Shown: positions 12,032-45,464, numbered from the stretch's first letter. The stretch is 64,000 nt of DNA from Candidatus Altiarchaeota archaeon (GCA_043813075.1 JBDRLL010000003.1:64001-128000); one strand, 5' to 3'. Notes: generated from the letters alone by a model not told the origin. Numbers and translations are program-made.

Positions 12032-12164
12032 TATTTTAGTAGAGTATATTAACAGGCCATAAAGAAAACTGGGGGGCAAGCCACAAAGCGTAGTGGCTAT
12101 CGCACCTGAGACCATAATGCATTGGGTACTGGGTCTTATTAAGTTTTTCACCGTATTCTTACCT

Positions 12165-27629: not shown

Positions 27630-28949
27630 ATGGGTTCATGCACGCTGATACTAAACTACGGGAGATGCGGTTGGGGTTCATGCCTCTTCTGCGGCTATGG
27701 AAGGTCATCGGGCAGGAAGCCTGACGTCGACGCATTAAAGAGGGAATTCGACGACTTCTTCGGAAAGATGGGGGAGGACGCGGAAGAAGTGAAGGTGTTC
27801 AGTTCCGGAAGCTTCTTGGACGACAGGCAGATACCGGCGGAAGCCAGGAGACACTTCATAGGGAAATGCATGGAGAAGGATATAAGGAGGGTGACTATAG
27901 AATCCCGCCCGGAATACGTCACAAAAGAAAAGCTCGAAGAATTCGAGGGGGTGAAGGTCACCCTGGCGATAGGATTAGAGTCCGCGGACAACCAGGTTCT
28001 TGAAAGGATAAACAAGGGATTCAGGAGGGAGGACTATGAGAGGGCTGCGGACATTGTGAAAAAGTCAGGGGGTGATGTTAGGACATATCTGCTCGTGAAC
28101 CCGCCATACGTGAAGGATGTCTGTAAGAGCGTGGATGATTCCGTTGAATACGCGTTAAAACACTCTGACAGCATAGTCCTGATAAACCTCCTCCCACACA
28201 GTAACGCGCCGCTATTCAAGAAATGGGTTGCAGGAGAATGGAGCTTCCTAGATAGGAGAGGATTCGATGAGGCGACAGCCCGGTGGGCTGACAACCCTAA
28301 AATCGAACTGGATTATGAGACATTCAAGTTCACGCCGCAATTCCCAGACCATATGAAGACGCCGATAAATGGCGTTGGGGAGGAGTATCTGACACACCCC
28401 TATTTCGAGGCCTGGCAGGACTATCTGGACAGGTTCTACCAGCCGTCTGAACGGAAGAAGACGCTGCTCCTCCTACCATGCAGCTACAGGAAACCGTACA
28501 GCGAGTCAAAGACCCACAAGGAGATAATAGGGGTTATCGGGGAAATCGGCGGGAGAGACCGCATACACGAAGTCATGCTCAGTAATGCGGGAGTCATACC
28601 AAGAGAATTCGAGGACAGATACCCCTTCAACGCATACGATTGGGATGAGAGCCTGGAGACGCCGGAGATAAGGAAGAGGTATGTGCAAGTCACGTCAGAG
28701 AGAATAGCCAACTATTTAAGAGCGCACGGAAAAAGATATGACAGGAAGGCCTGCTACCTCCGGAGAGCGTCGGACTCCCATCAGGCAGTCGAGAAGGCGT
28801 TCAAAGAGCTTGGTATGGAATTCGACAACCTGCTTTCCCCAGAAACCGACGGCAAACTAGATGGCGGGACAAGCGGCCTTAGGAAGCCGGAAGCGCTAGA
28901 TGATTTGAGGGAGGGTTTAAGACGGCTACTGCAAAATTCCACGCGATAG
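27630..28949 (+). CDS. Archaeosine biosynthesis radical SAM (RaSEA-like) fused to an ArcS-type (DUF5591-like) domain
   Basis: CGWGSCLFCGY, KVFSSGSFLD, IESRPEY, AIGLESAD, INKG and TYLL motifs, then LLLPCSYRKPYSESKTH...GVIPRE. Confidence 0.82.
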   Translation: MGSCTLILNYGRCGWGSCLFCGYGRSSGRKPDVDALKREFDDFFGKMGEDAEEVKVFSSGSFLDDRQIPAEARRHFIGKCMEKDIRRVTIESRPEYVTKEKLEEFEGVKVTLAIGLESADNQVLERINKGFRREDYERAADIVKKSGGDVRTYLLVNPPYVKDVCKSVDDSVEYALKHSDSIVLINLLPHSNAPLFKKWVAGEWSFLDRRGFDEATARWADNPKIELDYETFKFTPQFPDHMKTPINGVGEEYLTHPYFEAWQDYLDRFYQPSERKKTLLLLPCSYRKPYSESKTHKEIIGVIGEIGGRDRIHEVMLSNAGVIPREFEDRYPFNAYDWDESLETPEIRKRYVQVTSERIANYLRAHGKRYDRKACYLRRASDSHQAVEKAFKELGMEFDNLLSPETDGKLDGGTSGLRKPEALDDLREGLRRLLQNSTR

Positions 28950-31749: not shown

Positions 31750-33204
31750 TCACACTGAATTATCCACGCCCTTAGACGGCTTAAATAGCAGGATAATGCG
31801 CAATACGCGCAATAGAGGCTTCATCAAGGCATGGAACATTCTTGTTCTCCCGAACAGGAGGTGGGCTTTACCGCCGATTATCGCACGGTTTATCATCTTC
31901 CTGCCCACCGGGTTTTCATAGCTTGTCGCCAGGTTCTTCCTGAATATCCGCTTGTTGGACATACGTAGTACTTCTTCCGCTTTCTCTGTGTCGAAGCCTA
32001 CCTTACAGACGTATGACATGTGATCCCAGTAATCCAGGTCTGTTATGCCGACTTTCCCTTCCTCAAGGAATTCGTCCATAAGCCTGCCGTGGGGGGTGAA
32101 CTTCTGGTAGACCACCATGCTGGGATTCACTTCGTCCATGAAGTCTGTCTTCTCGACTATCGAATCCATTGATTCCAGGGGAGAGCCGACTATCATGGAG
32201 GCTATGACAAACACCCCGTTTTCAATCAGTATTGAGAACACCTCCTTGACTCGCAAGGCATCGTATCTCTTGCCGTAGTATCCCATTATCTCCTCGTTAA
32301 CGTCCTCAATGCCGAAGAGTATGGCCTTCACCCCAGCCTCGCGAGCTAGGGGTATCAGGTCAGGGTGGCTTATGAACGTGTCGACCCTCGCCTGGATGCT
32401 CGCGTTGATATCCAGCTTCCGCTCTGAAATGAGTTGCAGCAGCCGCCTGGTCTTGGAGACGTCGCCGAAGAAGTTGTCGTCAGCGAACATCAGGTTTTTC
32501 ACACCCATGCTCCGGGCATAGTATTCGATGTCTTCAGCCATGCGTTCGGGACTCCTTGTCCTGTATGGTGTGAAGAAGTCTTTTGAGGAGCAGAACAGGC
32601 ATTTGTGGGGGCACCCCCGGGACCAGTCGACCAGTAGGAATGGTTTTTCACACCATACGAAGTCGTAGTCATTGACGTCTATCAGCCTGAAGTCCGGGCG
32701 GGGCAGGTCATCCAAGTCAACCGTATCCTGTCTCCCAGAGTATCTGACCGCGCCGTCCTCCAGATAGTAGACCCCCTTAACCAGGGAGACTGGCTTGCCT
32801 GAATCGATCGAGTCCACGAGGCTCTTGAAGACAAAGTCTCCCTCGCCGGAGACTATGTAGTCCATAACCCGGCCCTTGAGTAGTGATTCGAAGTCCCGGT
32901 CCCTGAAGAAGATGTAGCTGCCTCCTGCGACAATAACCATGGTGTCGTCGAGCTCACGCAACTCCCTTAAGAGCTTTAGTGATTTAGTGTATGAAACGGT
33001 GTGAAGCAGGCTTATGCCCAGCACCTGAGGCTTGAACTCCCTCACCGCGTCGAACAGGATGCTGTCACCGCAAGCAGTCAAGTCTATAAGACGCACTTCA
33101 TGGTCAGGCTCAAGGATTGCGGCGATATACAGCAACCCTAGGGGCATCGCATTACCCAGAACTGATTCGACGTTAGAGTCGGGATTGACAAGTAAAACCC
33201 TCAT
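31750..33204 (-). CDS. Cobalamin-binding radical SAM protein (class B-like) #1
   Basis: MRVLLVNP...PLGLLYIAA, VAGG, SGEGD, WSRGCPHKCLFC, FADDNF and FGIE motifs. Confidence 0.9.
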   Translation of the reverse strand: MRVLLVNPDSNVESVLGNAMPLGLLYIAAILEPDHEVRLIDLTACGDSILFDAVREFKPQVLGISLLHTVSYTKSLKLLRELRELDDTMVIVAGGSYIFFRDRDFESLLKGRVMDYIVSGEGDFVFKSLVDSIDSGKPVSLVKGVYYLEDGAVRYSGRQDTVDLDDLPRPDFRLIDVNDYDFVWCEKPFLLVDWSRGCPHKCLFCSSKDFFTPYRTRSPERMAEDIEYYARSMGVKNLMFADDNFFGDVSKTRRLLQLISERKLDINASIQARVDTFISHPDLIPLAREAGVKAILFGIEDVNEEIMGYYGKRYDALRVKEVFSILIENGVFVIASMIVGSPLESMDSIVEKTDFMDEVNPSMVVYQKFTPHGRLMDEFLEEGKVGITDLDYWDHMSYVCKVGFDTEKAEEVLRMSNKRIFRKNLATSYENPVGRKMINRAIIGGKAHLLFGRTRMFHALMKPLLRVLRIILLFKPSKGVDNSV

Positions 33205-33216
33205 CCTGGATAACAA

Positions 33217-34692
33217 TTATACTTTATCAAGGTATAAGCGCCTGGCCGCCCCCCATAATCTCCATTCCACAGGATGGTTGAAGTACCTCCGCCGCCACCT
33301 GGCTTCAGCTGAAATATTGAAGAGGTAGTGGAATACATCGTATGCAGCCACCATAAGACTGCTTCCCCCAAGCCACGCCTTCTTCACCTCCGGACCCCTG
33401 GAGGCCAGCCGCTCATGGAAGTGGGTGAAGCGGACTATGTTTGATATCGTATCCAACTGGGACTGGGCTTCCATGCTCATCCAGGGGAGACGCACGGAGT
33501 CGAACCTCCATCCACCCCATTCTTCCAGGGAACCATGCACCATCATGCCCTGGGAGACCGCGGTTTCATGGATGGGCGTGCCAGGCTGGGGTATGAGCAT
33601 CCATAGGTTACATACCTCCGTCCTAGGGTTCAGCCTCCTGAGCTCGTCCACCAGGCTGAGGGTCTTGGACAGGTCTCCTGGAGTCTCATCAGGCCAGCCG
33701 ATGATGAAGCTCACCATTGGCGTTATCCCATAGTCCCCGCACTTTCGGACAGAATCAGTTATCTGGCTGACTGTGATACCCTTCCCAATCCCGTCAAGTA
33801 TCCTCTGGGAGCCTGACTCAGCGCCGAAAAACAGCGTCTCGCATCCGCTATCCCCCAGGAGTCTGGTGAACTCATCATCGTATCCGGAGAAATAGTCAGC
33901 CCTATTATAGGCCATCCACTTCACGTCCCACCCCTCCCGTATTATCGCCGAGCAGATGCTCCGCATCCTCTCCTTGTCGACAAAGGAGTTGTCCTCCTGG
34001 AAGGTTATGCTGTTTGCGCCGACTTCTTCTATTATGTTCCTTAGCTCCTCCACCACAACCTCGGGTTTCTTCGCCCTCCAGCCGCCCTTGCTGTAGCAGT
34101 GGTTAAAGCAGAACGTGCAGTTGTGGGGGCATCCCCTGCTGGACTGGTAGGAGAAGTATTCCCTGCAGTCGATGTATTTACGCAAGTCCACCAGATCGTA
34201 GTGGAGGCTGCCTATGGCGTTCATGTCCGTGAAACCCCTCGGTGGGGTTGAGACGACAACCCCGTCTTTCTTGAATGCGATTCCGTTGACATCCTTTAGC
34301 GGACCCTCATCCCTGACAGTGTTGGCAAGCTCTATGATGGTTTCCTCGCCGTCACCACTGACGGCGATGTCGACGAGACTGCTGGCCGCAGTCTGCTCCG
34401 GCAGCATCGTGGCGTGGGGCCCGCCCCATACTATCGGGATGTTTGGGTCTTCCTCGCGTATCATGCCTGCGACAGCGAGGCCGTGGCTTATCTGCGGCCC
34501 TGTCATGGATGTTATGCCTGCCAGAAGATACTCGCCGTCGAGATGCTTGAGGTCTTGAATCCGTGTGTCCACGATTTTCGGGTCGTAACCAGCATTCCGG
34601 AGGACTGTTCCAAGGTTTAGGAGCGGGAGCGGCATGTAGGGCGCCCTCTCTTTTTTTCCAGGGTATATCAGGAGTATTTTATCTGTCGCCAT
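33217..34692 (-). CDS. Cobalamin-binding radical SAM protein (class B-like) #2
   Basis: ILLIYPG...PLPLL, WGGPHAT, GDGEET, SSRGCPHNCTFC, GAESGSQRIL and PQPGT motifs; start MATDK at 34692. Confidence 0.92.
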   Translation of the reverse strand: MATDKILLIYPGKKERAPYMPLPLLNLGTVLRNAGYDPKIVDTRIQDLKHLDGEYLLAGITSMTGPQISHGLAVAGMIREEDPNIPIVWGGPHATMLPEQTAASSLVDIAVSGDGEETIIELANTVRDEGPLKDVNGIAFKKDGVVVSTPPRGFTDMNAIGSLHYDLVDLRKYIDCREYFSYQSSRGCPHNCTFCFNHCYSKGGWRAKKPEVVVEELRNIIEEVGANSITFQEDNSFVDKERMRSICSAIIREGWDVKWMAYNRADYFSGYDDEFTRLLGDSGCETLFFGAESGSQRILDGIGKGITVSQITDSVRKCGDYGITPMVSFIIGWPDETPGDLSKTLSLVDELRRLNPRTEVCNLWMLIPQPGTPIHETAVSQGMMVHGSLEEWGGWRFDSVRLPWMSMEAQSQLDTISNIVRFTHFHERLASRGPEVKKAWLGGSSLMVAAYDVFHYLFNISAEARWRRRYFNHPVEWRLWGAARRLYLDKV

Positions 34693-34732
34693 GCTTAATG
34701 TTTGATGATTATTACAAGAGTACCATATAAAG

Positions 34733-36073
34733 ATGGAGTTGGGGAAAAGCAGGAGCCTCTGTCCCATATGCCTGAAGGAGATTGACGCGAGCATAATCCA
34801 GGATGATGGGAGGGTGTTCATCTCTAGGGAGTGCGCTGCGCATGGATTGTTTGTTGACCCACACCTCTACGAGGATCCGGTCATATACAAGGCGCTCTCC
34901 AACATGGACTGCGGCGGGGATGACGTCCTACCGGACACTCTAGTGTTCCACACTACACCAGCATGCAACATGGACTGCCAGTTCTGCCCTATACCAGGCG
35001 AGATGAGGTCTGGTGAAGGCCCTGAGATAGGTGAGATTATGGATGAGGTCTCCAGATTCCATGGGTCTACCATATTCCTGTGCGGGGGAGAGCCGACCAT
35101 AAGGGGGGATTTGCCGGAGATAGTCGGGAAAATCTCAGGTGCAGGGAAGAATGTGCTGGTCTTCACCAACGGACTGAGACTAGCGGACAGGAAAAACGTG
35201 GATTCCCTCAAGGCCACAGGCCTGACCCAGGTCATACTCTCGTTCAGCACGTTTCAAGAGGAGAAGGACATTAAAGTCTACGGCTCCCGCGTCACTTCAT
35301 TGAAGCTGAAGGCCTTGGAGAACCTGAAGGCCACGCTGACCCCGACCGGCTTCTCATTCCTAGTATTCAAGGACATTAACGAAGACGAGGTGGATAAGGT
35401 GATCGGATACGCGGTAGACAACCGGGAGTGGGTCAAGAGCATATGCTTTCAGGTGGTCTGGAGGCCTTCCGAAAGGGACTCCAGCATGGTGAAGCAGAAG
35501 GGGATAATAGACCTTGTGCGAAAATCCGCTGGAATTGATGTTGAAGACTTCATAGAATGCACTGTCTTCGGCAGCACTGTGTCTGAGATTTTCAGGAGGA
35601 TTACGGGCAGGGGTGGGCGCGTGTATTCCAGGTGCGAGCTAAGATGCCAGTCATGGGTGTCAGATGGACGACTTGTGCCATTATCCGGGATGATTGATTT
35701 GAAGACTGTGAACGAATCGCTACGGAGAATTAACAGCCGCCTCAAGGGGTCAGCAGCCCGGAAGATTGGTGTGATGATCTTGTTTTTCCCTTACACAGAA
35801 TTATTGAAGTCGTTCATATTCAACAGGGACTTCAGAAACTTCTGCCTTAGCAGGTTTTCAGGCATGCTCTCAGGTATAGTGCACGGCAGGATGTTCCGCG
35901 AGTCGTTGGGGAAGGACATGCTCGGATTCATGGTGGGGAGATATTATACCAGGTACAACATCGACTTGGGGTTGGCGGATACTTGCAGGTACTGCAGGTC
36001 TCCTGAGGGAAACGACATCTCATACTGCATATGCGATATGATAGGGTGGACTGAGAACAAGCAGACTGCTTGA
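34733..36073 (+). CDS. MJ0619/Tes-like radical SAM protein #1
   Basis: N-terminal SRSLCPIC...CAAHG metal-binding module; CNMDCQFC; GGEPT; TNG; Cys-rich C-terminus. Confidence 0.85.
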   Translation: MELGKSRSLCPICLKEIDASIIQDDGRVFISRECAAHGLFVDPHLYEDPVIYKALSNMDCGGDDVLPDTLVFHTTPACNMDCQFCPIPGEMRSGEGPEIGEIMDEVSRFHGSTIFLCGGEPTIRGDLPEIVGKISGAGKNVLVFTNGLRLADRKNVDSLKATGLTQVILSFSTFQEEKDIKVYGSRVTSLKLKALENLKATLTPTGFSFLVFKDINEDEVDKVIGYAVDNREWVKSICFQVVWRPSERDSSMVKQKGIIDLVRKSAGIDVEDFIECTVFGSTVSEIFRRITGRGGRVYSRCELRCQSWVSDGRLVPLSGMIDLKTVNESLRRINSRLKGSAARKIGVMILFFPYTELLKSFIFNRDFRNFCLSRFSGMLSGIVHGRMFRESLGKDMLGFMVGRYYTRYNIDLGLADTCRYCRSPEGNDISYCICDMIGWTENKQTA

Positions 36074-36095
36074 TGAGCCGCTTGGTCCTGGTGAG

Positions 36096-37433
36096 TCATG
36101 GATTATCTGATTCCCGCGACCGGAACACTTCCCTAAGGCAGAACGGAACGACTCTATCTCCCTCAAAGCCTCCGAGACTGCAGCAGGACATGAATTCATA
36201 ATCCACGTTTGACGCGTCAAAATACCTGTTAGCTATTATACTGCACACCTGAGGCAGCATCATTGTTATCGGATGGTCATTTTCCGCAATGATCTTCCAT
36301 AATCCGGATGCGCTCGGCAGCATGAACAATATTGCGCGCGCGTCTCTGACGCTAGAGAGGAATGCGAGGATAGTCTTCACTAGGGCGCCTGCTTTCCCTG
36401 CTTTTCCATTGAAGTCTGTGCTAACGCTTATCTTGGATAGCCTTTCTGAGAGTGCCTGCATGTCCAGCAGATGGTTTAAAGGCGTTAGAGAATCCCCCAT
36501 ACGGACTAGGTATAGCCGTAGGTAGCATGCTGAAACCCGCCTACCACCCCTCCCAGACATCTTTCGCATAAGCTGGCTGAAGCAGAAGCCGAACCTGGTG
36601 CACTCGAGGAAGTCTTCCAAGCAGGTTCCCAGATGCATGCATACCAGATCAGCGGACTTGCTTGCAGGCACTGAACGCCCCGCGTCATTCCCATTTGGAT
36701 TCCAGTAGGATGAGAAAGCTAAACCCCTTATCCTACCCCTATGACGCCTCAAAAGTTCTATGAAGCCTGGAACCTGGTCCTCGTTTACGCCGTCCCGTAG
36801 GACAACATTCAGGAAGACTGGTATGTCTAGTTGAAGTAGGTTTTTTAACGCCCCCATCTTCTTCCCGACCACTTCCTCGCCGTATAGCCGGATGCCCTGA
36901 CCAGCATCCAGTGTGTCCAATGAGAGCACTATCAGTGGCTTGTTTCTTGAGAATGAACTGGCATAATCCATGCTGCCCAGCCTAATCCCGTTGGTGAAGA
37001 ATGAGGGATGATATCCCATAGACCTTAATTCACCTATTATCCCCGGCAGGTCGTCGCGCATGGTAGGCTCCCCGCCGAACAAGTATATTATGGAGCCGCC
37101 GAACCCAGCGGCAGTGGAGACTAATTCTTCCAGAGATATCGGATGTTCTTCCACCATGCCTTGAGGCTTAAAGCAGTCTGGGCAGTTCATGTTGCATAAT
37201 CCGGTGACATCCAGAAAAGCAGTGTCCGGAGACCATTCACCGTCTTCAGGGTCGATGGCCAGGAGTGACTTCATTGACGCGTAGACTTGCTTGTCTTGGA
37301 AAACGTGCGGGCTCACTGAAGTGCCATGCTCCGGGCATTCCTGCCTTATGAACATTCTCCCGCCATCCTCGAAGACCGTTGCATCAACATCCCTCAAGCA
37401 CTTCGGACAGATGCTCCGTGAATTTGATTCCAA
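36096..37433 (-). CDS. MJ0619/Tes-like radical SAM protein #2
   Basis: SRSICPKC...CPEHG; CNMNCPDC; GGEPT; TNG; C-terminal SCCS...VPFC; TTG start. Confidence 0.87.
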   Translation of the reverse strand: MESNSRSICPKCLRDVDATVFEDGGRMFIRQECPEHGTSVSPHVFQDKQVYASMKSLLAIDPEDGEWSPDTAFLDVTGLCNMNCPDCFKPQGMVEEHPISLEELVSTAAGFGGSIIYLFGGEPTMRDDLPGIIGELRSMGYHPSFFTNGIRLGSMDYASSFSRNKPLIVLSLDTLDAGQGIRLYGEEVVGKKMGALKNLLQLDIPVFLNVVLRDGVNEDQVPGFIELLRRHRGRIRGLAFSSYWNPNGNDAGRSVPASKSADLVCMHLGTCLEDFLECTRFGFCFSQLMRKMSGRGGRRVSACYLRLYLVRMGDSLTPLNHLLDMQALSERLSKISVSTDFNGKAGKAGALVKTILAFLSSVRDARAILFMLPSASGLWKIIAENDHPITMMLPQVCSIIANRYFDASNVDYEFMSCCSLGGFEGDRVVPFCLREVFRSRESDNP

Positions 37434-37488
37434 AAAAACCCCTCAAACACAGATTATGAGACAGGCAAGATATATTATTGTTAAGTTC

Positions 37489-37506
37489 TGATATTCAATA
37501 ATATCA
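37489..37506. promoter_or_regulatory. Palindromic putative operator in a divergent promoter
   Basis: tgatatt-caat-aatatca (7-bp arms) between divergently transcribed radical SAM genes. Confidence 0.35.
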
Positions 37507-37545
37507 AGGGTGTACGCTAGTGCAAAGAATTTCCGAATGGTTTGA

Positions 37546-39210
37546 ATGAAAATCAGGTTGAGCTGCTTTAATCCGTTCTCATATAGCATAACCCCCCTCG
37601 GACTGGGATACAAAAACGCTTCCCACAACAACGCTGGACACGACTCTATGATACGCCTTTTTGAACGGGAGGAGTCAGCGTTCTACGACACACTGCTGTC
37701 GATGGACTTTCTTGGGAAGAGATTCCCGCTAATATCGATACCAGAATACATACAACAGATCGAACTGGTGGAGAATGAAGTTTTCGCAGAGGAGCTCGGC
37801 TTCATAGACAGGGGGGAGATGAACTACAGGTCCAGATTCCCCTCTGAAACAGAGAGGCTGGTTGGGATATGCGACTCCATAGCGGACAGCCTGTCAGGCA
37901 ACAGTATGGTGGGATTCAACATAACGTCAATAGCCATGGGACCGACACTATACATCTCGAAGGCAATTAGGGAGAGGGATGATGGCGTGAAGATAGTGTA
38001 TGGGGGGCCGATAACAGACATGATGGCTGGAGTTTTAGACCCCATAAACGCCATGCACAAGTCCATCAACGAGTCAATGAGGAGTAGCGGCATATACGGG
38101 AGGTACGCTGATTTTCTGGCTGGGAACGTCGACTTCCTGGTTCACGGTGAGGGTGAGGAGACTATTGTGGAAATTGCTAATGCGATTGATGATGGAGGTG
38201 ACGCGGAGATACCGGGGACTACCGCCATCAGGGAGGGGTCTTTCAAGAGGAGTCGCCCTAGGAGGCCTGTTGACTTGGATGGGATATGCCGTCCAGACTT
38301 TGATGGCATAGACATGAGGACGTACGGGTATGTCACGTTCAACTTCTCCAGGGGTTGTATTAACGCGTGCACGTTCTGTGACGAGTGCCTGTTCTTCAAG
38401 GGCTACAGAGTCAGGGATCCGGCAAAGGTTTTGGAGGAGTTGAGCGCCGGCTCAGAGAGATATCCTGGTAAAAGGTTTCTCGCGTGCGACAGCCTGCTGA
38501 ACGGAGACCCTGCGAGGCTGAAGGAGCTCTGCAGGCTGATTACTGAGTCAGGGCTGCGTATAGACTGGAGCGGATACCTGCGGCTGCCTGAGACGGACGA
38601 GGAACTAGTAGACCTGCTCTATGAGTCCGGTTTCAGGAGGCCGAAATTCGGTTTAGAGACCATCGACGATGGGGTCTATGAGGAGGTTGGCAAGCGGCAG
38701 GAGACCGGTCACGCGCTTAGGATCATGGACTACTGCAGGAGGAAGGGCATGAAGGTGACCGCGAACTTCATGATCGGGTATCCGGGGAGGGGAATGGACT
38801 TCGAGCTGGAGGTGATGGATAGGGTTAAGGGCATACGAGGGCACTATGATTACATGCCGCTTGAATCGATAAACGTGGGTATAAGGTCGAGTGTCGCGAG
38901 CGACCCTGAGAGGTGGGGTTTCGAGATAAAAAGCACCCATGAATTCAGTGAGAGTGACTGGGAGTATTATACACTGGCAAGGTCGTATATCCCGGGAATC
39001 ATAACGTACACGAGGAATTCGCTGTCACGAAGCGAGGCTGAGAGGATATTCGAGGAATACAACAGGCACGGTCTTCTCAACAAGAGGGGGTTGGAGTATG
39101 GACTCCACAAGTATGGATTAGGATGGCTGAAAAAGTATAGGCGGTATATTCCGTTCAGCATATCCAACTGGCTTAAGCTCCAGTATCTTAAGGAGGAGAT
39201 AATCATTTGA
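37546..39210 (+). CDS. Cobalamin-binding-like radical SAM protein #3 (divergent N-terminus)
   Basis: VYGGP, HGEGEET, FSRGCINACTFC, DSLLNG, FGLE and NFMIGYPG motifs. Confidence 0.85.
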   Translation: MKIRLSCFNPFSYSITPLGLGYKNASHNNAGHDSMIRLFEREESAFYDTLLSMDFLGKRFPLISIPEYIQQIELVENEVFAEELGFIDRGEMNYRSRFPSETERLVGICDSIADSLSGNSMVGFNITSIAMGPTLYISKAIRERDDGVKIVYGGPITDMMAGVLDPINAMHKSINESMRSSGIYGRYADFLAGNVDFLVHGEGEETIVEIANAIDDGGDAEIPGTTAIREGSFKRSRPRRPVDLDGICRPDFDGIDMRTYGYVTFNFSRGCINACTFCDECLFFKGYRVRDPAKVLEELSAGSERYPGKRFLACDSLLNGDPARLKELCRLITESGLRIDWSGYLRLPETDEELVDLLYESGFRRPKFGLETIDDGVYEEVGKRQETGHALRIMDYCRRKGMKVTANFMIGYPGRGMDFELEVMDRVKGIRGHYDYMPLESINVGIRSSVASDPERWGFEIKSTHEFSESDWEYYTLARSYIPGIITYTRNSLSRSEAERIFEEYNRHGLLNKRGLEYGLHKYGLGWLKKYRRYIPFSISNWLKLQYLKEEIII

Positions 39211-39827
39211 CACATAGGGGAGAGCTTACCGGAGAATTGCCTGAACCCGACTGGGATGCGGTCTGGGGCAGGAATTTAGGCAAGAATCTGACGGTATTTA
39301 GGGTATACTCTGGGCTCAGGTTCAGAAGCTATAGAAGACTGTTCAGTGGACTGGACCTGGAGGGTAGGGGGGTGCTGGAGATAGGGGGTGGGACAGGACA
39401 GTTAGGCAGCATGCTTGGGAGGGAATTCAAGTGCAATGTAACACTGATAGACGATAGTGAAGAGGCTTTCAGATTCCACTCCAGATTCGGCATAAAAGGG
39501 GTGGATTATGTGAGGGGGGATGTCTTCAGGCATGAGGGAGTCTACCATCTAGTCTACAGTGACGGGCTTATAGAACACTACAGGGGCGCTAAGAGGGAGG
39601 ATCTGATACGGCGTCATTCCCTGTTATGCGGTGAGGGGGGTTACACCGCCTTTTTTGTGCCAAAAAAATCGTTTTTCGTTGACATGTTCCTCACACTCAG
39701 GGGCTATTACGAGGAGAAGTACGACGTGGATGGCATCACTTCAGAGCTGGAGGAGAATGGCCTTGAGGTCCTCAAGACTGTGGAGGATTTCCATATGATA
39801 GGTGTGTTATGCGAGCAGAGGGGATAG
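39207..39827 (+). CDS. Class I SAM-dependent methyltransferase
   Basis: VLEIGGGTG and SDGLIEHY motifs; overlaps both neighbours. Confidence 0.87.
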   Translation: MTHRGELTGELPEPDWDAVWGRNLGKNLTVFRVYSGLRFRSYRRLFSGLDLEGRGVLEIGGGTGQLGSMLGREFKCNVTLIDDSEEAFRFHSRFGIKGVDYVRGDVFRHEGVYHLVYSDGLIEHYRGAKREDLIRRHSLLCGEGGYTAFFVPKKSFFVDMFLTLRGYYEEKYDVDGITSELEENGLEVLKTVEDFHMIGVLCEQRG

Positions 39828-41164
39828 CCTTTGAGGCAAGGACTAGGAGCCTCTGCCCAGTTTGCCTCAAGCAGGTGGACGCGAGCGTAAGGATTATTGA
39901 GGGTAAGGTCAGCATCAGCAAGGAATGCGACAAGCATGGCTCCTTCGAGTCGCCGCATTTTTGGGGTGATGAAGTGCTTTATCACGCGATGAAGAGGATA
40001 GCGGACATGTGTGATGACGGGGTACCCCCGGACAACCTCGGGTTGTATCTCACACAGAAGTGCGATTTGAGTTGCAGCTACTGTTATCTGAAGGATAATG
40101 AGGAGGGGATGGAAGAGCCGAGCATAAGCGATGTCTTAGATTATGTGTCCGGATTTAAGGGGTCGACTGTCATACTAAGCGGGGGGGAGCCGACACTCAG
40201 GGACGACCTGCCTGAGATAATCAAGGTGGTGCGGGAGAGAGGATACATGATTGTGCTCGCGACAAATGGCATGAGGCTTTCGAGAGAATACGTGGAAGAC
40301 CTGAAGTCATGCGGTTTGGGCATGGTGATGCTGTCTTTCACGACCTTTAAGGAGGAATACTCAGAGAGACTGCAGGGCATCAACACTGTCGAGGCTAAGA
40401 GAAGCGCTGTAAGAAACCTTAATGACGCATGCATCCCATTGTTCCTCTACATTCCTGTTTTGAGGGGGGTGAACGACAGTGAGATAGGCGCATTCATAGA
40501 TTACGCCAAATCCGTGAATGCGGTGAGGGCGGTTGACTTCAATGTGACAACACACCCAGGAGGATTCTCAGACAAGCTGACGCTCACACAGAAGGAGATT
40601 ATCGACGTGATAGGAGAGCATACTGGCGTTGGCGTTGAGGACTTTACGGACTGCACGTTATCCGTGCACCTTGCATCAGAGGCATTAAGGAAGGTATTAG
40701 GTGGTGGGAGGAGGAGTTCAGGATGTTATCTGAGACTATACTTCCTCAGGTCAGGGGAGGTCTTAAGTCCAGTGAGCGGGATTCTGGACTTGAAGTATGT
40801 TAACATGAGGCTTCTATCAGCCAACGCTATCCTTGACTCGAAATCACCGCTCAGGAGAATCAAGGCGTTGAGCATCATCGCGGGATTGTTCCTATCAACC
40901 GCTTGGCGGAATCAGGAGGGGATGATGCTTTGTTCAAGTGTTGTCAGAAGCATTGCCTCCAGGAGAGGTGGCTCGTCTGCTGGCGGCGGATTACTATGCA
41001 TTAATGTTATGCGATTCAACGACCGCTTCAACGCTGACCTTGGTTTCACTCGGGCATGCTGCTCGCACAGCATCAGGAATGCTTCAGAGAAGCCAATGTG
41101 CGCGTGCATTAGGGAAATGTATTTCTGCAGGCCGCCTGTCTTTAAGAAAAGGAATCTAAAGTAG
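39809..41164 (+). CDS. MJ0619/Tes-like radical SAM protein #3
   Basis: TRSLCPVC...CDKHG; CDLSCSYC; SGGEPT; TNG; GVND; C-terminal ACCS...PMCAC. Confidence 0.87.
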   Translation: MRAEGIAFEARTRSLCPVCLKQVDASVRIIEGKVSISKECDKHGSFESPHFWGDEVLYHAMKRIADMCDDGVPPDNLGLYLTQKCDLSCSYCYLKDNEEGMEEPSISDVLDYVSGFKGSTVILSGGEPTLRDDLPEIIKVVRERGYMIVLATNGMRLSREYVEDLKSCGLGMVMLSFTTFKEEYSERLQGINTVEAKRSAVRNLNDACIPLFLYIPVLRGVNDSEIGAFIDYAKSVNAVRAVDFNVTTHPGGFSDKLTLTQKEIIDVIGEHTGVGVEDFTDCTLSVHLASEALRKVLGGGRRSSGCYLRLYFLRSGEVLSPVSGILDLKYVNMRLLSANAILDSKSPLRRIKALSIIAGLFLSTAWRNQEGMMLCSSVVRSIASRRGGSSAGGGLLCINVMRFNDRFNADLGFTRACCSHSIRNASEKPMCACIREMYFCRPPVFKKRNLK

Positions 41165-41170
41165 TGTATA

Positions 41171-43351
41171 ATGCAATTCTGGCGTGGGGGTATTGCAAGG
41201 GACTTGCTGTTCCTGGTCTGCCTTTCTGCGGTTATACTAGTCATCGGAGCATCCAGCATAAGGGAGAAGTCTCCAGTATGGGACGAACCATATTATGTTG
41301 GAGCGGGATACTACATGCTCAGACAGTGGGATAAACCGTGGATAAACTATACCAGCCTAGTTCCCATAATAACGCACCCCCCGCTACCGTATTACGTCAA
41401 CAGCATACCGTTCTACATATACGACTTGATTGGCGACTTCTCGGATGGAGGATTGTTTGATACAAATGAGAGCGAACTAGTCACGTATCCGCCACCAAGC
41501 GTGGATGAGATATTGGATTTGAAGAGGGATTATCCTGAAAAATTCGGGCAGAGATTCATATACTCTGACGAATACGAGGAGTACGACCTCCTGTTCTACT
41601 CGAGGTGCTCGATGCTACTATTGCTGATACTATGCAGCACATACATGTTCGTGATTGCCAAGAGATACTACGGTTTCGAGACGGCCTGCGTGATAACCGC
41701 TTTATTCTCGCTAAACCCGAGCATACTCGCACACGCCAGGCTGGCGACAACCGATATCGCTCCGGCATGCTTTAATCTCATATCATTCTACTACTTCACG
41801 CTTTTCATGGAGAGGAAGAGTCTGACGAGGGGTCTTGCTGTAGGCATAACACTCGGACTGGCCTTGCTCAGCAAGGAATCCAGCACCTACCTGCTGGCAC
41901 TATATTCCGCAATAGTATTCATCCGACTAGTGTCATGGTTTGTGTCGAGGGTCGTGCATGTAGTAAAGACTTGTTGTGGTCTTATGAGTGATAAAAACAG
42001 AATGTCCGAGTCCATCGCGTCGATGCTAACTTGGAGTAGGTTTAGGGGGAGCCTCCCGCTCTTAGGGCTCATAACGCTCATCTCACTGACAGGTGTTTCA
42101 GTATACCATGGCGGGGAAAAAAGCACTATAGTATACGTTGTGGTGATAACGCTTTTCATGATCTTCTACTCTGAGGGGAGGAAGAGGGCTTTCATTGGTT
42201 TTGTCAGATGGTTTTTCCGGCTTTTGAGGTCGCTGACACCATACGCGATGATTGTTGTTTTAGCGACAACCACATTGAATGCGGGGTACTTGTTCACGGA
42301 GATAAACTACGACTGGCTCGAGAACTGGGGGGGTATCCTGCTAAAGGACGTCCGCTTCTCGCAAGACGAGATGATGGATAGGAGCATTAGGGGTTATGCC
42401 CTTGGCTTGAGACTGCCTGTGTCAGACTACTACCTCTACACTATAATGAATACGCGAGTTCATATGAGGGTCGGGCACCCAAGCTACATAAAGGATGTTA
42501 TAATCTCTAGTAGGGAGGTGGGCGAGATGAAACCCGGATTCGTGGAGGACGAGATGCTGAAGATAAGGGAGGGTGTTAGTGTGAAGAAGAGGATGGACTA
42601 CTGGGTGACGCTATTCCTGATAAAAGCCCCTGAAGGGCTTCTGATACTGCTGCTCTTCTCGATATTCTACTTCTTCTCAAACCAATTCAAGAGGGGGATA
42701 GTCAACGATAAGTTGACATGGTTCAGGACGTGCCTTGTGCTGAACATAATCACGGCCTGCATGATGATTCTCGCATCAACCATACTGATTGGCGTAAGAC
42801 TTGTGTTATTCATATTTCCGCTATTGTATCTACTACTAGCGGAGCCGATGAAGGCTCTGCTGTCTGGCGGCAGAACCTCCAGGAGACTAGCATACATCAT
42901 CATAGCATTATCGGTACTCCCAGCTGTCATATACCACCCGCACTACATCCCCTACTTCAATCAGTTGGTTGGCGGCCCGGAAAACGGATACACTTACGCT
43001 TCAGACTCGAATGTTGACTGGGGTCAGGATTTGCCTGGCCTGAAGGAGTATATGGACGAGAAAGGCATTGACGAGATTAAACTGGCATACTTCGGGACCG
43101 CGAGGATAGATGAGTATGGGATAGAGTATTTTTCACTGCCAAACAACCAGGGGATAGAGATGTTCTCTGGGCAGCGGAGTCCTGACGTGGAGTGCGGCCC
43201 TGTTGAGGGCATACTCGCAGTCAGCGCGACAAGCCTGACAGGGCAGTTCGGAGACCCCGGATGCTATGAGTGGCTTAGAGGCTACGAACCGATGGACAAC
43301 ATAGGATATTCCATACTAGTCTATAACATCACCAATGCAACAGCAGGCTAG
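41171..43351 (+). CDS. GT-C fold polytopic glycosyltransferase (PMT/ArnT-like)
   Basis: WDEPYY, HPPL, LAHARLATTD, ALLSKES and YFNQLVGG...DSNVDWGQDL motifs. Confidence 0.85.
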   Translation: MQFWRGGIARDLLFLVCLSAVILVIGASSIREKSPVWDEPYYVGAGYYMLRQWDKPWINYTSLVPIITHPPLPYYVNSIPFYIYDLIGDFSDGGLFDTNESELVTYPPPSVDEILDLKRDYPEKFGQRFIYSDEYEEYDLLFYSRCSMLLLLILCSTYMFVIAKRYYGFETACVITALFSLNPSILAHARLATTDIAPACFNLISFYYFTLFMERKSLTRGLAVGITLGLALLSKESSTYLLALYSAIVFIRLVSWFVSRVVHVVKTCCGLMSDKNRMSESIASMLTWSRFRGSLPLLGLITLISLTGVSVYHGGEKSTIVYVVVITLFMIFYSEGRKRAFIGFVRWFFRLLRSLTPYAMIVVLATTTLNAGYLFTEINYDWLENWGGILLKDVRFSQDEMMDRSIRGYALGLRLPVSDYYLYTIMNTRVHMRVGHPSYIKDVIISSREVGEMKPGFVEDEMLKIREGVSVKKRMDYWVTLFLIKAPEGLLILLLFSIFYFFSNQFKRGIVNDKLTWFRTCLVLNIITACMMILASTILIGVRLVLFIFPLLYLLLAEPMKALLSGGRTSRRLAYIIIALSVLPAVIYHPHYIPYFNQLVGGPENGYTYASDSNVDWGQDLPGLKEYMDEKGIDEIKLAYFGTARIDEYGIEYFSLPNNQGIEMFSGQRSPDVECGPVEGILAVSATSLTGQFGDPGCYEWLRGYEPMDNIGYSILVYNITNATAG

Positions 43352-43354
43352 CGG

Positions 43355-43645
43355 CTATGCTTTGGAAGGAGTGTTCTGGAATCTGCTCCAGTAGGCTAGG
43401 GCAGATACTGTCACCAAGATTATAACCAGGTAAGAGGTAAGTGAGGTTATGGCTATGCCAGCATTCTTGTTTATAAAGTATATTATAAGATGTGGTATCA
43501 CACCCAGTATGGCGCTTAATCCGATCCTCTCGACTATACTGACGTCATTGCGCTTAGGGAATATTGCGAGGGATAGGGCGTACCCAGGGACGAATATGAA
43601 CAAGAGGGAGATTATTGTGCCCCAGAATATGCTTTGACCGTCCAT
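43355..43645 (-). CDS. Small membrane protein (DUF1616 N-terminal-like)
   Basis: FVPGYALSLAIFP...ERIGLS motif; three TM helices. Confidence 0.7.
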   Translation of the reverse strand: MDGQSIFWGTIISLLFIFVPGYALSLAIFPKRNDVSIVERIGLSAILGVIPHLIIYFINKNAGIAITSLTSYLVIILVTVSALAYWSRFQNTPSKA

Positions 43646-43680
43646 CCTTTATTATTACACAACAAGCCCATAAAAAGCCT

Positions 43681-44766
43681 TTAAAGCATGTCTGCAATGA
43701 AGAAGGGCGAGTAGGCGAGGAATTTGACCGCGAACCGGGGGTTGAAGGCTAGGCTGCTGATAACCCTTGACGCATAGTCCATGTCGCCCCCACTCTCAAG
43801 ACTGCCCCTTACAGACTGGAGTAGGTCGAAGAGACGATCCAGACTCTTTGGTGAAAGCCCGGATAAGAAACGATGTATGAACAAGTGCATGAGAAGCTCG
43901 CGTCCGACCGCCCTCTTCCATTCGCGCTCGTATTGGTCGCTGAAAGCATATTCAGCAGCCAGACCGCCCATGACGATTCCGCCGCCGGTGGAAGCCTTCA
44001 CCTGCCCTCCAGCATCCCCCACAGTCACCAGACCATCGTACTGCGTCCTCATCGACGGCTTGTGTATGGGTATTATCCCGTAGTGCTCGTCGAACACCGT
44101 GTCTTTTCTGAGGCGGCCTTCATCACGCAGTTTTTTCACGAATGCCTCCATGTAGGGCCTTGGATTTCTCTTGGTGCAGAGTCCGATGCGAGCACGGTCC
44201 CCGATGGGTATGACCCATGCGAAGAAGTCAGGGACGGTGAAATACAATTCAGCGAAATCATTGTCGCATTCAACGTCCATCTCGTACTGCATTCCAATGA
44301 GGAATTCGCTCGGCTTTTCAATGCCCATTGTGATGTGGAGTGAGTAGTCCGTTCCGGTGGCGAGGGCTATTCGGTCGGCCTTTATCTTGGAGCCGTCACT
44401 GGTGGATATTGTGCCATTGACGTCAACCACGCGGCCGGTGGCCCGGACTGCTCCCGCATCAACTGCCTTGTTTAAGAGGTGGCCGTCAAAACCTATACGA
44501 TCCACCACACACGCCATCGTCTTGCCGCCATCAGCCTCGAACAGCACGCCCCCTGGAGAGTAGAACCTCGCGCCACGAATCCTGTTCAATATGAAATCCC
44601 CGTCACTAACGCCCAGTCTCTCAAGTCCAGACTTGCTTATCAGGCCCGCACACTGGACCCTGCAGACGTCGCCGCCTATCAGCGCGACATCCATTGACTT
44701 GGCGGCGTGCGTTGCTGCGATACAACCTACGGGGCCTGCACCCACCACAGCAGCGTCATATTTCAT
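43681..44766 (-). CDS. Geranylgeranyl reductase family FAD oxidoreductase
   Basis: YDAAVVGAGPVG, QCAGLIS, DRIGFD, FAWVIP and GDAGGQVKASTGGGI motifs. Confidence 0.88.
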   Translation of the reverse strand: MKYDAAVVGAGPVGCIAATHAAKSMDVALIGGDVCRVQCAGLISKSGLERLGVSDGDFILNRIRGARFYSPGGVLFEADGGKTMACVVDRIGFDGHLLNKAVDAGAVRATGRVVDVNGTISTSDGSKIKADRIALATGTDYSLHITMGIEKPSEFLIGMQYEMDVECDNDFAELYFTVPDFFAWVIPIGDRARIGLCTKRNPRPYMEAFVKKLRDEGRLRKDTVFDEHYGIIPIHKPSMRTQYDGLVTVGDAGGQVKASTGGGIVMGGLAAEYAFSDQYEREWKRAVGRELLMHLFIHRFLSGLSPKSLDRLFDLLQSVRGSLESGGDMDYASRVISSLAFNPRFAVKFLAYSPFFIADML

Positions 44767-45464
44767 TTCTTCTTGTGCTTAGAATAAGCCAGGAGCAGCC
44801 TATTGGTTGAAACCAGTATCTTATCCTTCCTATCCGTCTTGACTTCTATCAGCTTCTTACTCTCAAGCGACTCAGCCCACTCCATGACAGTGTTCTTGTC
44901 TGAGTCGAGGAGTATCGCCGCGTCAATCAGCTTGACCCTCTTCAGTCTTGCGACAGTCTTGGCGAGTTCCTTTGGTCCGGAAGACTTGGCCTGCGACTTT
45001 TCCCTCTTTTCGGGGGATGCTATGAGGTCGTCGAATGAATCCTCTGTTAGAGGGGTCACTATCCTCTGTGATACGGGCCTCTCGGGTTCAGTGGGCCTTG
45101 CCTTGGAGGCGTATTCCAGTTCGTCGGTTATCCTCTTGACGTCATCCTCAAGACGTTTCACGTCAGATTCTCTCCCAGCGAGCTTTGACGCCCATTCGGA
45201 GTCCTTGTTTCTAACTTCTTCACGCAATTGGCGTATGGTTTCGTTGGAGCGCATGAGGTGGTATGTTAGGACATCCATCTTCTCAGCGACTGCGATAGCG
45301 TATAGCTGGTCTGGGTGCGCTCCGGTGAGGGAACGCTGGTACCATGCGTCAAGCTCCTGCTCACGCTTCAAGAGCATTGCGTGTTCACGCACGTATTTTC
45401 TCTCAAGTTCCTCGTATCTCCTGCGTTCTTCCTTAAGCTGTTTTTCCAGGTCTTCCCCAGCCAT
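44763..45464 (-). CDS. Coiled-coil protein with C-terminal winged-helix-like domain
   Basis: Coiled coil; VKLIDAAILL...VMEWAESLESKKLIEV, similar to the domains of 25319-27628. Confidence 0.7.
   Translation of the reverse strand: MAGEDLEKQLKEERRRYEELERKYVREHAMLLKREQELDAWYQRSLTGAHPDQLYAIAVAEKMDVLTYHLMRSNETIRQLREEVRNKDSEWASKLAGRESDVKRLEDDVKRITDELEYASKARPTEPERPVSQRIVTPLTEDSFDDLIASPEKREKSQAKSSGPKELAKTVARLKRVKLIDAAILLDSDKNTVMEWAESLESKKLIEVKTDRKDKILVSTNRLLLAYSKHKKK

Follow-up and report, generated by a model that had tools for sequence, protein, structure and literature searches.

A stretch of 64,000 nucleotides from a Candidatus Altiarchaeota archaeon (GCA_043813075.1 JBDRLL010000003.1:64001-128000; the window hereafter, G000:C3:64001-128000, with positions counted from its first letter) carries at 31750-43351 a gene island organized around an undescribed branch of the Tes superfamily of radical S-adenosylmethionine (SAM) enzymes. 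We name TesL the Tes-like radical SAM proteins of this island. The reference enzyme Tes, or GDGT-MAS (MJ0619; PDB 7TOL/7TOM; NF045702), joins lipids of archaeal membranes into membrane-spanning tetraethers and is used as the genomic marker for production of tetraethers (glycerol dialkyl glycerol tetraethers, GDGT) in environmental and palaeoclimate work. The gene system is real, non-random and conserved. Six radical SAM open reading frames (ORFs), each with one CxxxCxxC motif in its translation, lie within 9.4 kb, as the original prediction had noticed, and the radical SAM domain PF04055 is above its Pfam cut-off in 6/6 of their products. The genome has 41 PF04055 matches in 1,798,969 bp, so that about 0.21 would be expected per 9.4 kb; the Poisson probability of six is ~1e-7 per interval of that size and the cluster is thus far beyond chance.

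We favor, at about even confidence, the reading that this island is one half of an accessory pathway, patchily spread and probably exchanged horizontally, that would cross-link and decorate a hydrophobic isoprenoid lipid. The pathway would combine TesL with B12-type radical SAM enzymes and, elsewhere in the genome, with a UbiA prenyltransferase.

Family placement of the TesL proteins

The three TesL proteins of the window combine PF23545, the MJ0619/HMPTM zinc ribbon, with the radical SAM domain, in agreement with their first description as MJ0619/Tes-like (PF23545 and PF04055, respectively: TesL1, 51 and 63.5 bits; TesL2, 49.6 and 46.2 bits; TesL3, 50.4 and 92.6 bits). On the curated Tes model NF045702, whose cut-off is 450 bits, they score 127.7 (TesL1), 103.7 (TesL2) and 158.3 bits (TesL3). 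Their scores on the TrsS model NF045646 (cut-off 490 bits) are about as high, at 116-166 bits (116.2 for TesL1 and 166 for TesL3). Nine further TesL reach 137.8-206.2 bits on the Tes model, which places all 12/12 scanned TesL at 104-206 bits, under the cut-off, versus 452.6-741.7 bits for the Tes-clade rows sampled (6/6). TrsS-clade rows score 499-694 bits on their own model in 7/8 cases and 478 bits in the remaining one. Since Tes and TrsS members give 300-417 bits on each other's models (300-378 for TrsS-clade rows on the Tes model), TesL is more distant from either family than the two are from one another.

A 100-row tree (quick IQ-TREE run, LG+C20, midpoint root only) was built from 121 HMM matches after removal of those below 160 bits, those outside the length range of 400-600 aa, redundant copies and a fragment. 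It separates a TesL clade of 14 rows (SH-aLRT 97) from archaeal Tes (42 rows, 95), which includes the true Tes of nine related genomes, and from bacterial TrsS (43 rows, 99). This placement against Tes, which the original prediction had proposed as a check, leaves TesL in the same superfamily and outside the Tes clade. Judged by sequence, TesL proteins are not Tes, because they fail the curated cut-off, form a separate clade and have lost the N-terminal auxiliary cluster's cysteines (see below); they are best classified as a third, undescribed branch of the superfamily. TesL3 matches the characterized enzyme GDGT-MAS (7tol) with a phmmer E-value of 5.5e-40 over residues 5-422. The discoverers of Tes used as homology threshold a BLASTP E<1e-50 and more than 30% identity to a characterized Tes (PMC8941075). 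TesL3, with E 5.5e-40 and 23-24% identity in the structural alignment, lies outside this threshold, although query and program differ, the discoverers having used MA_1486 and BLASTP. Loose searches for "Tes homologs" may count proteins that are not Tes.

TesL also differs from Tes in copy number. TesL genes come in arrays of 2-6 paralogs, whereas Tes is found in one or two copies. Methanogen genomes have one or two Tes homologs, and the second copy of M. acetivorans gave only traces of macrocyclic archaeol (PMC8941075). We found no account in the literature searched of a Tes-like clade without the N-terminal cluster, though supplementary lists of Tes homologs (PMC8941075) and a 2026 Altiarchaeota lipid tree may include TesL-type sequences.

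Metal sites, fold and pocket domain

An alignment of 32 rows (14 TesL, 10 Tes and 8 TrsS-clade) shows that the rubredoxin cysteines, the CxxxCxxC motif and the three cysteines of the C-terminal cluster are kept in 14/14 TesL, 10/10 Tes and 8/8 TrsS-clade proteins. The rubredoxin-type site of TesL reads CX2C...CX2H, with a histidine that is invariant in the nine sequences of A1 and nearly so in A2. The cysteines of the N-terminal auxiliary [4Fe-4S] cluster, whose ligands in GDGT-MAS are C73, C77, C80 and a histidine (PMC9433317), are found in 0/14 TesL versus 10/10 Tes and 8/8 TrsS-clade rows, their loss corresponding to a deletion of ~25 residues in 14/14 TesL. The position equivalent to Met439, the labile ligand of the C-terminal [4Fe-4S] cluster of GDGT-MAS, is Met only in TesL3 and Gly or Asn in the other five paralogs of the genome. 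TesL could thus reveal how much of the Tes metallocofactor set sp3-sp3 coupling really needs.

The AlphaFold2 model of TesL3 (pLDDT 86.4, pTM 0.88) is predicted to adopt the whole fold of GDGT-MAS (Foldseek against 7tol: TM 0.80/0.73 over 485 columns, E 5.7e-30), the next entry being MoaA with a TM of 0.38. The likeness to Tes thus covers rubredoxin site, CxxxCxxC motif, C-terminal-cluster cysteines, helical pocket domain and fold. The helical segment from which the second lipid pocket of GDGT-MAS is built is more hydrophobic in TesL (mean Kyte-Doolittle +0.12) than in Tes (-0.21) or the TrsS clade (-0.78), as is its best 19-aa window (1.37, 0.75 and 0.15, respectively). TrsS, a (seleno)protein family, shares with TesL the superfamily and the domain order, but its clade, bacterial here, keeps the N-terminal cluster cysteines and has a hydrophilic helical segment. 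The idea of a Tes-like lipid enzyme thus stands as far as superfamily, by sequence and by fold, is concerned; identity with Tes itself does not.

Organization of the island

The genes of the island and the gene that follows it are listed in Table 1. They form four transcription units, B12b-B12a (-), TesL1 (+), TesL2 (-) and B12c-MT-TesL3-GT-C (+), and not two divergent units as had been described. In the last unit, of which B12c is the first gene, B12c and MT overlap by 4 nt and MT and TesL3 by 19 nt, while a gap of 7 nt separates TesL3 from GT-C.

Table 1. Genes of the radical SAM island and its convergent neighbor (positions in the window)
Gene	Position	Strand	Length (aa)	Product and remarks
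B12a	31750..33216	-	488	Class-B radical SAM enzyme (cobalamin-binding domain + radical SAM); alternative start ATG 33204
B12b	33217..34692	-	491	Class-B radical SAM enzyme, from ATG 34692; immediately upstream of B12a, same strand
TesL1	34733..36073	+	446	Tes-superfamily radical SAM protein, TesL clade
TesL2	36096..37433	-	445	TesL-clade radical SAM protein; convergent with TesL1
B12c	37546..39210	+	554	Class-B-like radical SAM protein; N-terminal extension of ~120 aa
MT	39207..39827	+	206	Probable class I SAM-dependent methyltransferase; coupled in translation to both neighbors
TesL3	39809..41164	+	451	TesL-clade radical SAM protein
GT-C	41171..43351	+	726	PMT/ArnT-like membrane glycosyltransferase; starts 7 nt after TesL3
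GGR-family gene	43681..44766	-		Convergent to the island

The succession of PF02310 and radical SAM domain typical of class B is found in B12a (PF02310, 52.2 bits for a cut-off of 32.1; PF04055, 65.8 bits; motif CPHKCLFC) and B12b (43.2 and 72.6 bits; motif CPHNCTFC). A longer B12b ORF, to 34821, would overlap TesL1, and the B12-domain alignment starts just after the 34692 start. B12c has a PF04055 score of 57.5 bits and a PF02310 score of only 16.1 bits (E 0.01). Its residues 129-462 align to class-B radical SAM families of NCBIfam, all under their cut-offs. Since the PF02310 score is not significant, B12c is called B12-type by family likeness and not by a domain match; of the three cobalamin-binding enzymes proposed at the outset, the domain search thus supports two. 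The best NCBIfam scores are to BchE for B12a (166.9 vs 481 bits), ApyD for B12b (147.4 vs 750) and TIGR03975 for B12c (90.6 vs 282). Sequence search of the PDB with the B12 enzymes returned remote class-B matches only (TokK, CysS, OxsB, TsrM, AprD4 and 9ccb), the best for B12a being TokK (E 8.7e-12).

The island belongs to a metagenome-assembled genome (MAG) of 41 contigs and 1.80 Mb, 89% complete, that holds six TesL, 17 B12-type radical SAM, four UbiA and four geranylgeranyl reductase (GGR)-family genes. B12-type and TesL genes make up 23/41 of its radical SAM matches.

Recurrence of the TesL gene neighborhood

A second island lies on contig C10 of the same genome. It opens with TesL4 and a fragment resembling GT28, after which a PMT-type GT-C stands between two B12 radical SAM genes. 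Then come a hypothetical gene, a GT-C with 61% identity to that of the window, guaA-C, three GT-Cs, TesL5, TesL6, a divergent UbiA, DnaJ and DnaK. In total the island has three TesL, two B12 radical SAM genes, five GT-Cs and UbiA. The three-plus-three paralog set first described in the window has its six genes and is not self-contained, further TesL, B12, GT-C and UbiA genes being found on C10. The C10-island UbiA falls in the ESM Atlas into generic UbiA clusters only, one of them commonest in Omnitrophota. A small protein without Pfam match is encoded between DnaJ and the island UbiA (L010:9645-10313, or G000:C10:133645-134313; L102:5174-5773 in the related genome G012 described next) and is conserved between the two genomes (26% identity, E ~1e-11). 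A few kb upstream of the C10 island lie two tandem sulfatase genes (L009:1141-3814, or G000:C10:107141-109814), followed by aminotransferase, PFK and class I FBPase genes.

In G012, a genome of a related genus in the same family (NCBI label 'Candidatus Altiarchaeales archaeon'), a single island adjoins GrpE-DnaK-DnaJ. It carries UbiA, a B12c ortholog (53% identity; PF02310 31.6 vs 32.1 bits) adjoined by the TesL2 ortholog (46%), the TesL1 ortholog (43%) and a further TesL pair that includes the TesL6 ortholog; after these come a putative glycosyltransferase of 797 aa, a methyltransferase gene and a GT-C. This GT-C has its best match in the Altiarchaeota genome inside the C10 island (32% identity, 3e-77). 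The G012 island therefore joins orthologs of the TesL1, TesL2 and B12c genes of the window and of TesL6, UbiA and one GT-C of C10, next to DnaK/DnaJ as on C10; because of this junction we infer that the window and C10 islands are two halves of one ancestral system.

At least three outside TesL loci were found among the matches listed from profile scans of genome contigs and metagenomes; those listed in the genome-contig scan with the TesL alignment were mostly Tes and TrsS relatives. L022 (Omnitrophota label, GC 35%) strings together, on a single strand, a radical SAM gene, a methyltransferase, a B12 radical SAM gene, a trio of radical SAM genes, UbiA, a TesL pair, another B12 radical SAM gene and a last pair of radical SAM genes. 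L106 (metagenome, GC 32%) begins with TesL, a B12 radical SAM gene and two TesL; a further B12 radical SAM gene, a GT-C of weak score and a GT2 follow. In L107 (metagenome, GC 41%), a GDSL hydrolase precedes a pair of B12 radical SAM genes, TesL, a relative lacking the ribbon and an aminotransferase. The L107 gene string opens with a 452-aa ORF without Pfam match; two ORFs of the Altiarchaeota genome, also without Pfam match, are 28-29% identical to it (window 10718-12151 (-) and G000:C8:6872-8215; E 1e-49 to 2e-55).

Among the eight contexts with flanks (a G001 contig, too short, was left out), TesL lies beside a B12 radical SAM gene in 7/8: the window, C10:113622-120877, G012, G020 contig C245, L022, L106 and L107. 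In the eighth, C10:130070-132749, the nearest B12 gene is 9 kb off. Synteny in relatives had been suggested as a check on the system, and it is this TesL-B12 pairing that recurs. UbiA is found in 3/8 contexts (C10, G012 and L022), and the sole match of the L022 UbiA in the Altiarchaeota genome at E<=1e-8 is the C10-island UbiA. Orthologs of B12c are present in 2/41 genomes of the order, the one outside the window's own genome being that of G012, and both genomes (2/2 among the 41 searched) carry TesL. We found no account of TesL/B12/UbiA gene clusters in the literature searched, supplementary data aside.

These recurrences bear on the possibility that the genes have no joint function and are by-products of tandem duplication, serving unrelated pathways in a genome whose radical SAM and GT-C families have expanded. 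The 17 B12-type, six TesL and 43 GT-C matches of the genome, the identity of only 24-37% between island paralogs and the four transcription units would all suit such a scenario. It is nonetheless very improbable in our estimate: six radical SAM genes stand where 0.21 are expected, the genes from B12c to GT-C overlap or abut, the TesL-B12 pairing recurs in organisms that are not closely related and range from 32 to 48% GC, and B12c orthologs occur only in TesL genomes.

Methyltransferase, GT-C and the neighboring GGR-family gene

The small methyltransferase (MT) scores 26.6 bits on Methyltransf_25 for a gathering score of 27 (E 9.7e-6), all its Pfam matches being just under their gathering scores, and shows the GxGxG-type motif VLEIGGGTG. 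Its TTG start, behind a AAGGAGGAG stretch, overlaps the TGA stop of B12c by 4 nt and its 3' end overlaps TesL3 by 19 nt, which bears out the translational coupling recognized at first.

The GT-C is above the Pfam cut-offs for PMT (41.2 vs 22.7 bits) and PMT_2 (38.2 vs 26.1), confirming its PMT/ArnT-like character. It shares with such enzymes an acidic pair, 'WDEPYY' at residues 37-42, after the first hydrophobic segment; an acidic pair following the first membrane segment is, we presume, diagnostic of GT-Cs. It matches no NCBIfam family and no PDB entry by sequence. The DUF1616-like membrane protein that had been placed here was rejected, along with a division of 41171-43351 into two proteins: the segment is a single 726-aa ORF without DUF1616 match at E<=1, and no ORF of at least 100 aa lies in 43352-43680.

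The presence of this gene 7 nt downstream of TesL3, in the same operon, raises the alternative of a pathway for a polyprenyl-phosphate-linked glycan or surface glycoconjugate. UbiA-type and GT2 enzymes would charge a polyprenyl phosphate with a sugar, the radical SAM enzymes would modify this bound sugar or the carrier tail, and GT-Cs would then, outside the membrane, pass the product to a protein or lipid of the surface. Polyprenyl-phospho-sugars are products of some UbiA-family enzymes, e.g., in mycobacterial decaprenylphosphoryl-5-phosphoribose (DPPR) synthesis. GT-C genes lie in or beside 4-5/8 TesL contexts (the window, both parts of C10, G012 and, with a PMT_2 score of 24 bits under the cut-off, L106). 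L106 ends with GT-C then GT2, the usual pair of polyprenyl-phosphate sugar routes, and the G012 GT-C has, as said, its best match inside the C10 island. However, the genome has 43 PMT_2 matches in 1.8 Mb, 37 of them above the cut-off, so that GT-C neighbors are often expected and adjacency is weak evidence. B12 radical SAM genes within 6 kb of a GT-C number 7/17 versus 3.6 expected, a value reached in 259/5000 permutations with genes that are not independent; given this borderline result, proximity was dropped as a main argument. Moreover, the window GT-C has no ortholog in the G012 island, L022 and L107 have no GT-C within the locus sequence examined, and the sole characterized relative of TesL acts on lipid tails and not on sugars. 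We consider the glycan pathway rather unlikely. Regions bearing GT-C and B12 radical SAM genes are found also elsewhere in the genome, e.g., C10:4013-19710, C13:3215-6938, C36:77761-90917 and C28:4811-21814.

The convergent GGR-family gene is real: its product scores 164.3 bits on TIGR02032 (cut-off 158.8) and is under the equivalog cut-offs for digeranylgeranylglycerophospholipid (DGGGPL) reductase (60.3 vs 780 and 44.2 vs 580 bits). It was rejected as an island member. An ortholog with 45-60% identity is present in 40/41 genomes of the order, the purA-hyp233-GGR context is conserved in the nine neighboring loci examined (purA in 9/9 and hyp233 in 8/9), and the G012 ortholog lies 415 kb from the island. 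The gene is hence an unrelated conserved neighbor, as the original prediction had itself allowed. The hyp233 gene (window 44763-45464, -) codes for a charged, coiled-coil-like protein of 233 aa without family match and sits between purA and GGR with junctions of 3-4 nt.

Distribution of TesL and Tes

With presence called at 490 bits or more, TesL is found in 4/41 genomes of the order and 4/61 of the phylum, all in family f1, and in 1/61 genomes around G041, labeled Omnitrophota. It is absent from G002 (92% complete), which shares its genus with G012. True Tes is found in 9/41 genomes of the order and 2/21 of family f1; the window's own genome, searched as a whole in its 89% complete MAG, has no match above the Tes cut-off. 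Family f1 comprises four TesL genomes without Tes over the cut-off, two Tes genomes without TesL and none with both (0/21), numbers too small, and from MAGs too incomplete, to establish mutual exclusion. One true Tes of the same family (532 bits; L018, or G007:C63:24610-27967) has one in-frame TGA, which may encode selenocysteine, stem from a sequencing error or mark the gene as broken.

When 1.84 billion representatives were searched with a profile, 1197 proteins came out at E<=1e-30. Among the best 150 of these 1197, a crude pattern test, fragments included, finds one CxxxCxxC in the first 200 residues of 140, two in 6 and none in 4. The 140 single-motif proteins argue that the short type is a real, if small, family. 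Its named members are labeled Altiarchaeales and Omnitrophota, and the bacterial TesL carriers among the matches listed are two MAGs, both with the latter label.

Proposed function and alternatives

A hydrophobic, probably isoprenoid, substrate is the best reading for TesL, in view of the Tes-superfamily fold, the recurring B12 pairing, UbiA in 3/8 contexts and the hydrophobic helical domain. In the favored lipid pathway, the divergent UbiA prenyltransferase encoded on C10, and beside the orthologous cluster in the related genus, would make a prenylated scaffold. With 5'-deoxyadenosyl radicals generated at its radical SAM cluster, TesL would abstract hydrogen from sp3 carbons at unactivated positions in lipid tails. 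The first carbon radical would be held as a C-S adduct on the C-terminal [4Fe-4S] cluster until a second radical closes the C-C bond. By analogy with GDGT-MAS, whose C-terminal cluster carries the substrate C-S intermediate (PMC9433317; PMC13459092), TesL probably couples the carbons of hydrophobic tails in this manner, and each of the five to six TesL paralog lineages may have its own position or substrate. The B12 radical SAM partners could methylate, cyclize or desaturate the tails, like Grs, Gmm, GDGT methylases and Ted of other archaea, while completion of the head group may fall to the small methyltransferase and GT-C enzyme(s).

Gene clusters of comparable logic are known. In T. guaymasensis, the gms-grs-gmm genes group a C-C bond-forming radical SAM enzyme with B12-binding radical SAM enzymes for the same tails, as archaeal lipid radical SAM genes do (PMC11214058; 10.1101/2025.10.20.683597), and B12 radical SAM enzymes methylate, cyclize and desaturate GDGT tails (10.1101/2025.10.20.683597). 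Gms is, in contrast, a SPASM/Twitch enzyme without rubredoxin domain (PMC13459092), whereas TesL has the rubredoxin domain and no SPASM match. Mss, the bacterial membrane-spanning lipid synthase, is a radical SAM enzyme for which cluster-assisted coupling of two lipid tails is proposed (PMC13459092); the likeness is one of description, TesL grouping with Tes and TrsS. Radical SAM enzymes are increasingly found behind most of the structural diversity of archaeal lipids. The TesL branch, set apart by its structure (no N-terminal auxiliary cluster, more hydrophobic pocket domain) and by multi-paralog arrays tied to B12 radical SAM and UbiA genes, could lead to new C-C bond-forming lipid chemistry and help to trace to their origin the unassigned lipids found in anoxic subsurface and sediment habitats.

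Several points weigh against a lipid pathway. The substrate and product are predicted, by analogy, for every TesL, and the TrsS sister clade has no known lipid link, so that superfamily membership alone is no proof of a lipid substrate; a review lists TrsS as a selenoprotein (PMC13188914), and we found no function for it in the literature consulted. The chemistry of TesL may differ from that of Tes since the N-terminal cluster is absent and the Met439 equivalent is present only in TesL3. B12a-c pass no curated NCBIfam cut-off (BchE, HpnR, HpnJ, PhpK, Mmp10-type and others) and are likened to GrsA/B, Gmm, GDGT methylases and Ted by the published role of these enzymes, not by sequence. The tree of B12 radical SAM enzymes (25 rows, LG+G4 quick) is poorly resolved, with long branches joined, and does not group the island-linked enzymes. 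The methyltransferases of the window, G012 and L022 have no detectable orthology. UbiA is not present in the window itself, L106 or L107, and that of C10 is under all curated prenyltransferase cut-offs (best 36 vs 269 bits). Finally, the patchy distribution suits a specialized product of any kind, not only a lipid.

This last point also suits another explanation, in which the array tailors a non-lipid specialized metabolite, a cofactor or a ribosomally synthesized and post-translationally modified peptide (RiPP), and the likeness to Tes reflects shared cluster chemistry alone. Besides a distribution that resembles horizontal transfer (4/61 and 1/61) and a sister clade without known lipid role, it is favored by the ten radical SAM genes in a row of L022, one with a SPASM domain, by the class IV aminotransferase and GDSL hydrolase of L107 and by B12 matches to RiPP C-methyltransferases, all under cut-off (TIGR03975, 90.6-107.4 bits; ApyD, 147.4 bits). 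Yet no precursor peptide or short precursor ORF, leader peptidase or protease, cyclodehydratase or exporter was seen in the annotated loci, the helical domain of TesL exceeds that of Tes, a lipid enzyme, in hydrophobicity, the clusters repeatedly include a UbiA prenyltransferase and the full-length fold matches GDGT-MAS only. These features make a non-lipid product decidedly unlikely. The unusual lipid or glycan tailoring first proposed for the island is thus supported in part, by the superfamily, the B12 pairing, the UbiA association and the hydrophobic pocket; Tes identity, the GGR link, a self-contained set and the DUF1616 protein are not borne out.

Within the lipid reading, a bolder version, which we regard as improbable though worth stating, has TesL arrays as a second, independent route to membrane-spanning or cross-linked isoprenoid lipids that replaces Tes in the Altiarchaeota lineages without it, the cassette of UbiA, TesL and B12 radical SAM genes having moved between Archaea and Omnitrophota. 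Each TesL lineage would forge a different C-C link, e.g., the first and second tail couplings or mid-chain bridges, with one iron-sulfur cluster fewer than Tes, and couplings of unequal C20/C25 chains could yield asymmetric 'extended' tetraethers. The separate occurrence of Tes and TesL among genomes of family f1, though on numbers far too low for a test, hints in this direction. Extended tetraethers were lately attributed to Altiarchaeota, in which the canonical tes genes of Alti-1 and Alti-2 differ in origin (10.64898/2026.01.06.697877).

Other features of the window

The remainder of the window codes for ordinary housekeeping functions of archaea (eIF-6, PCNA, class I LysRS, Hef, HerA and purine synthesis). 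A further, seventh radical SAM gene is found 2.8 kb upstream of the island (27630-28949, +). It is fusion-like: the N-terminal part of its product scores 140 bits on RaSEA, the archaeosine radical SAM enzyme (cut-off 212), and the C-terminal part has an ArcS-type DUF5591 domain. The preceding ORF (25319-27628, +) encodes 769 aa with weak helix-turn-helix matches only, in a region where AT skew is very high (0.415 at 26-28 kb), GC skew is high and several long, overlapping ORFs occupy the opposite strand.

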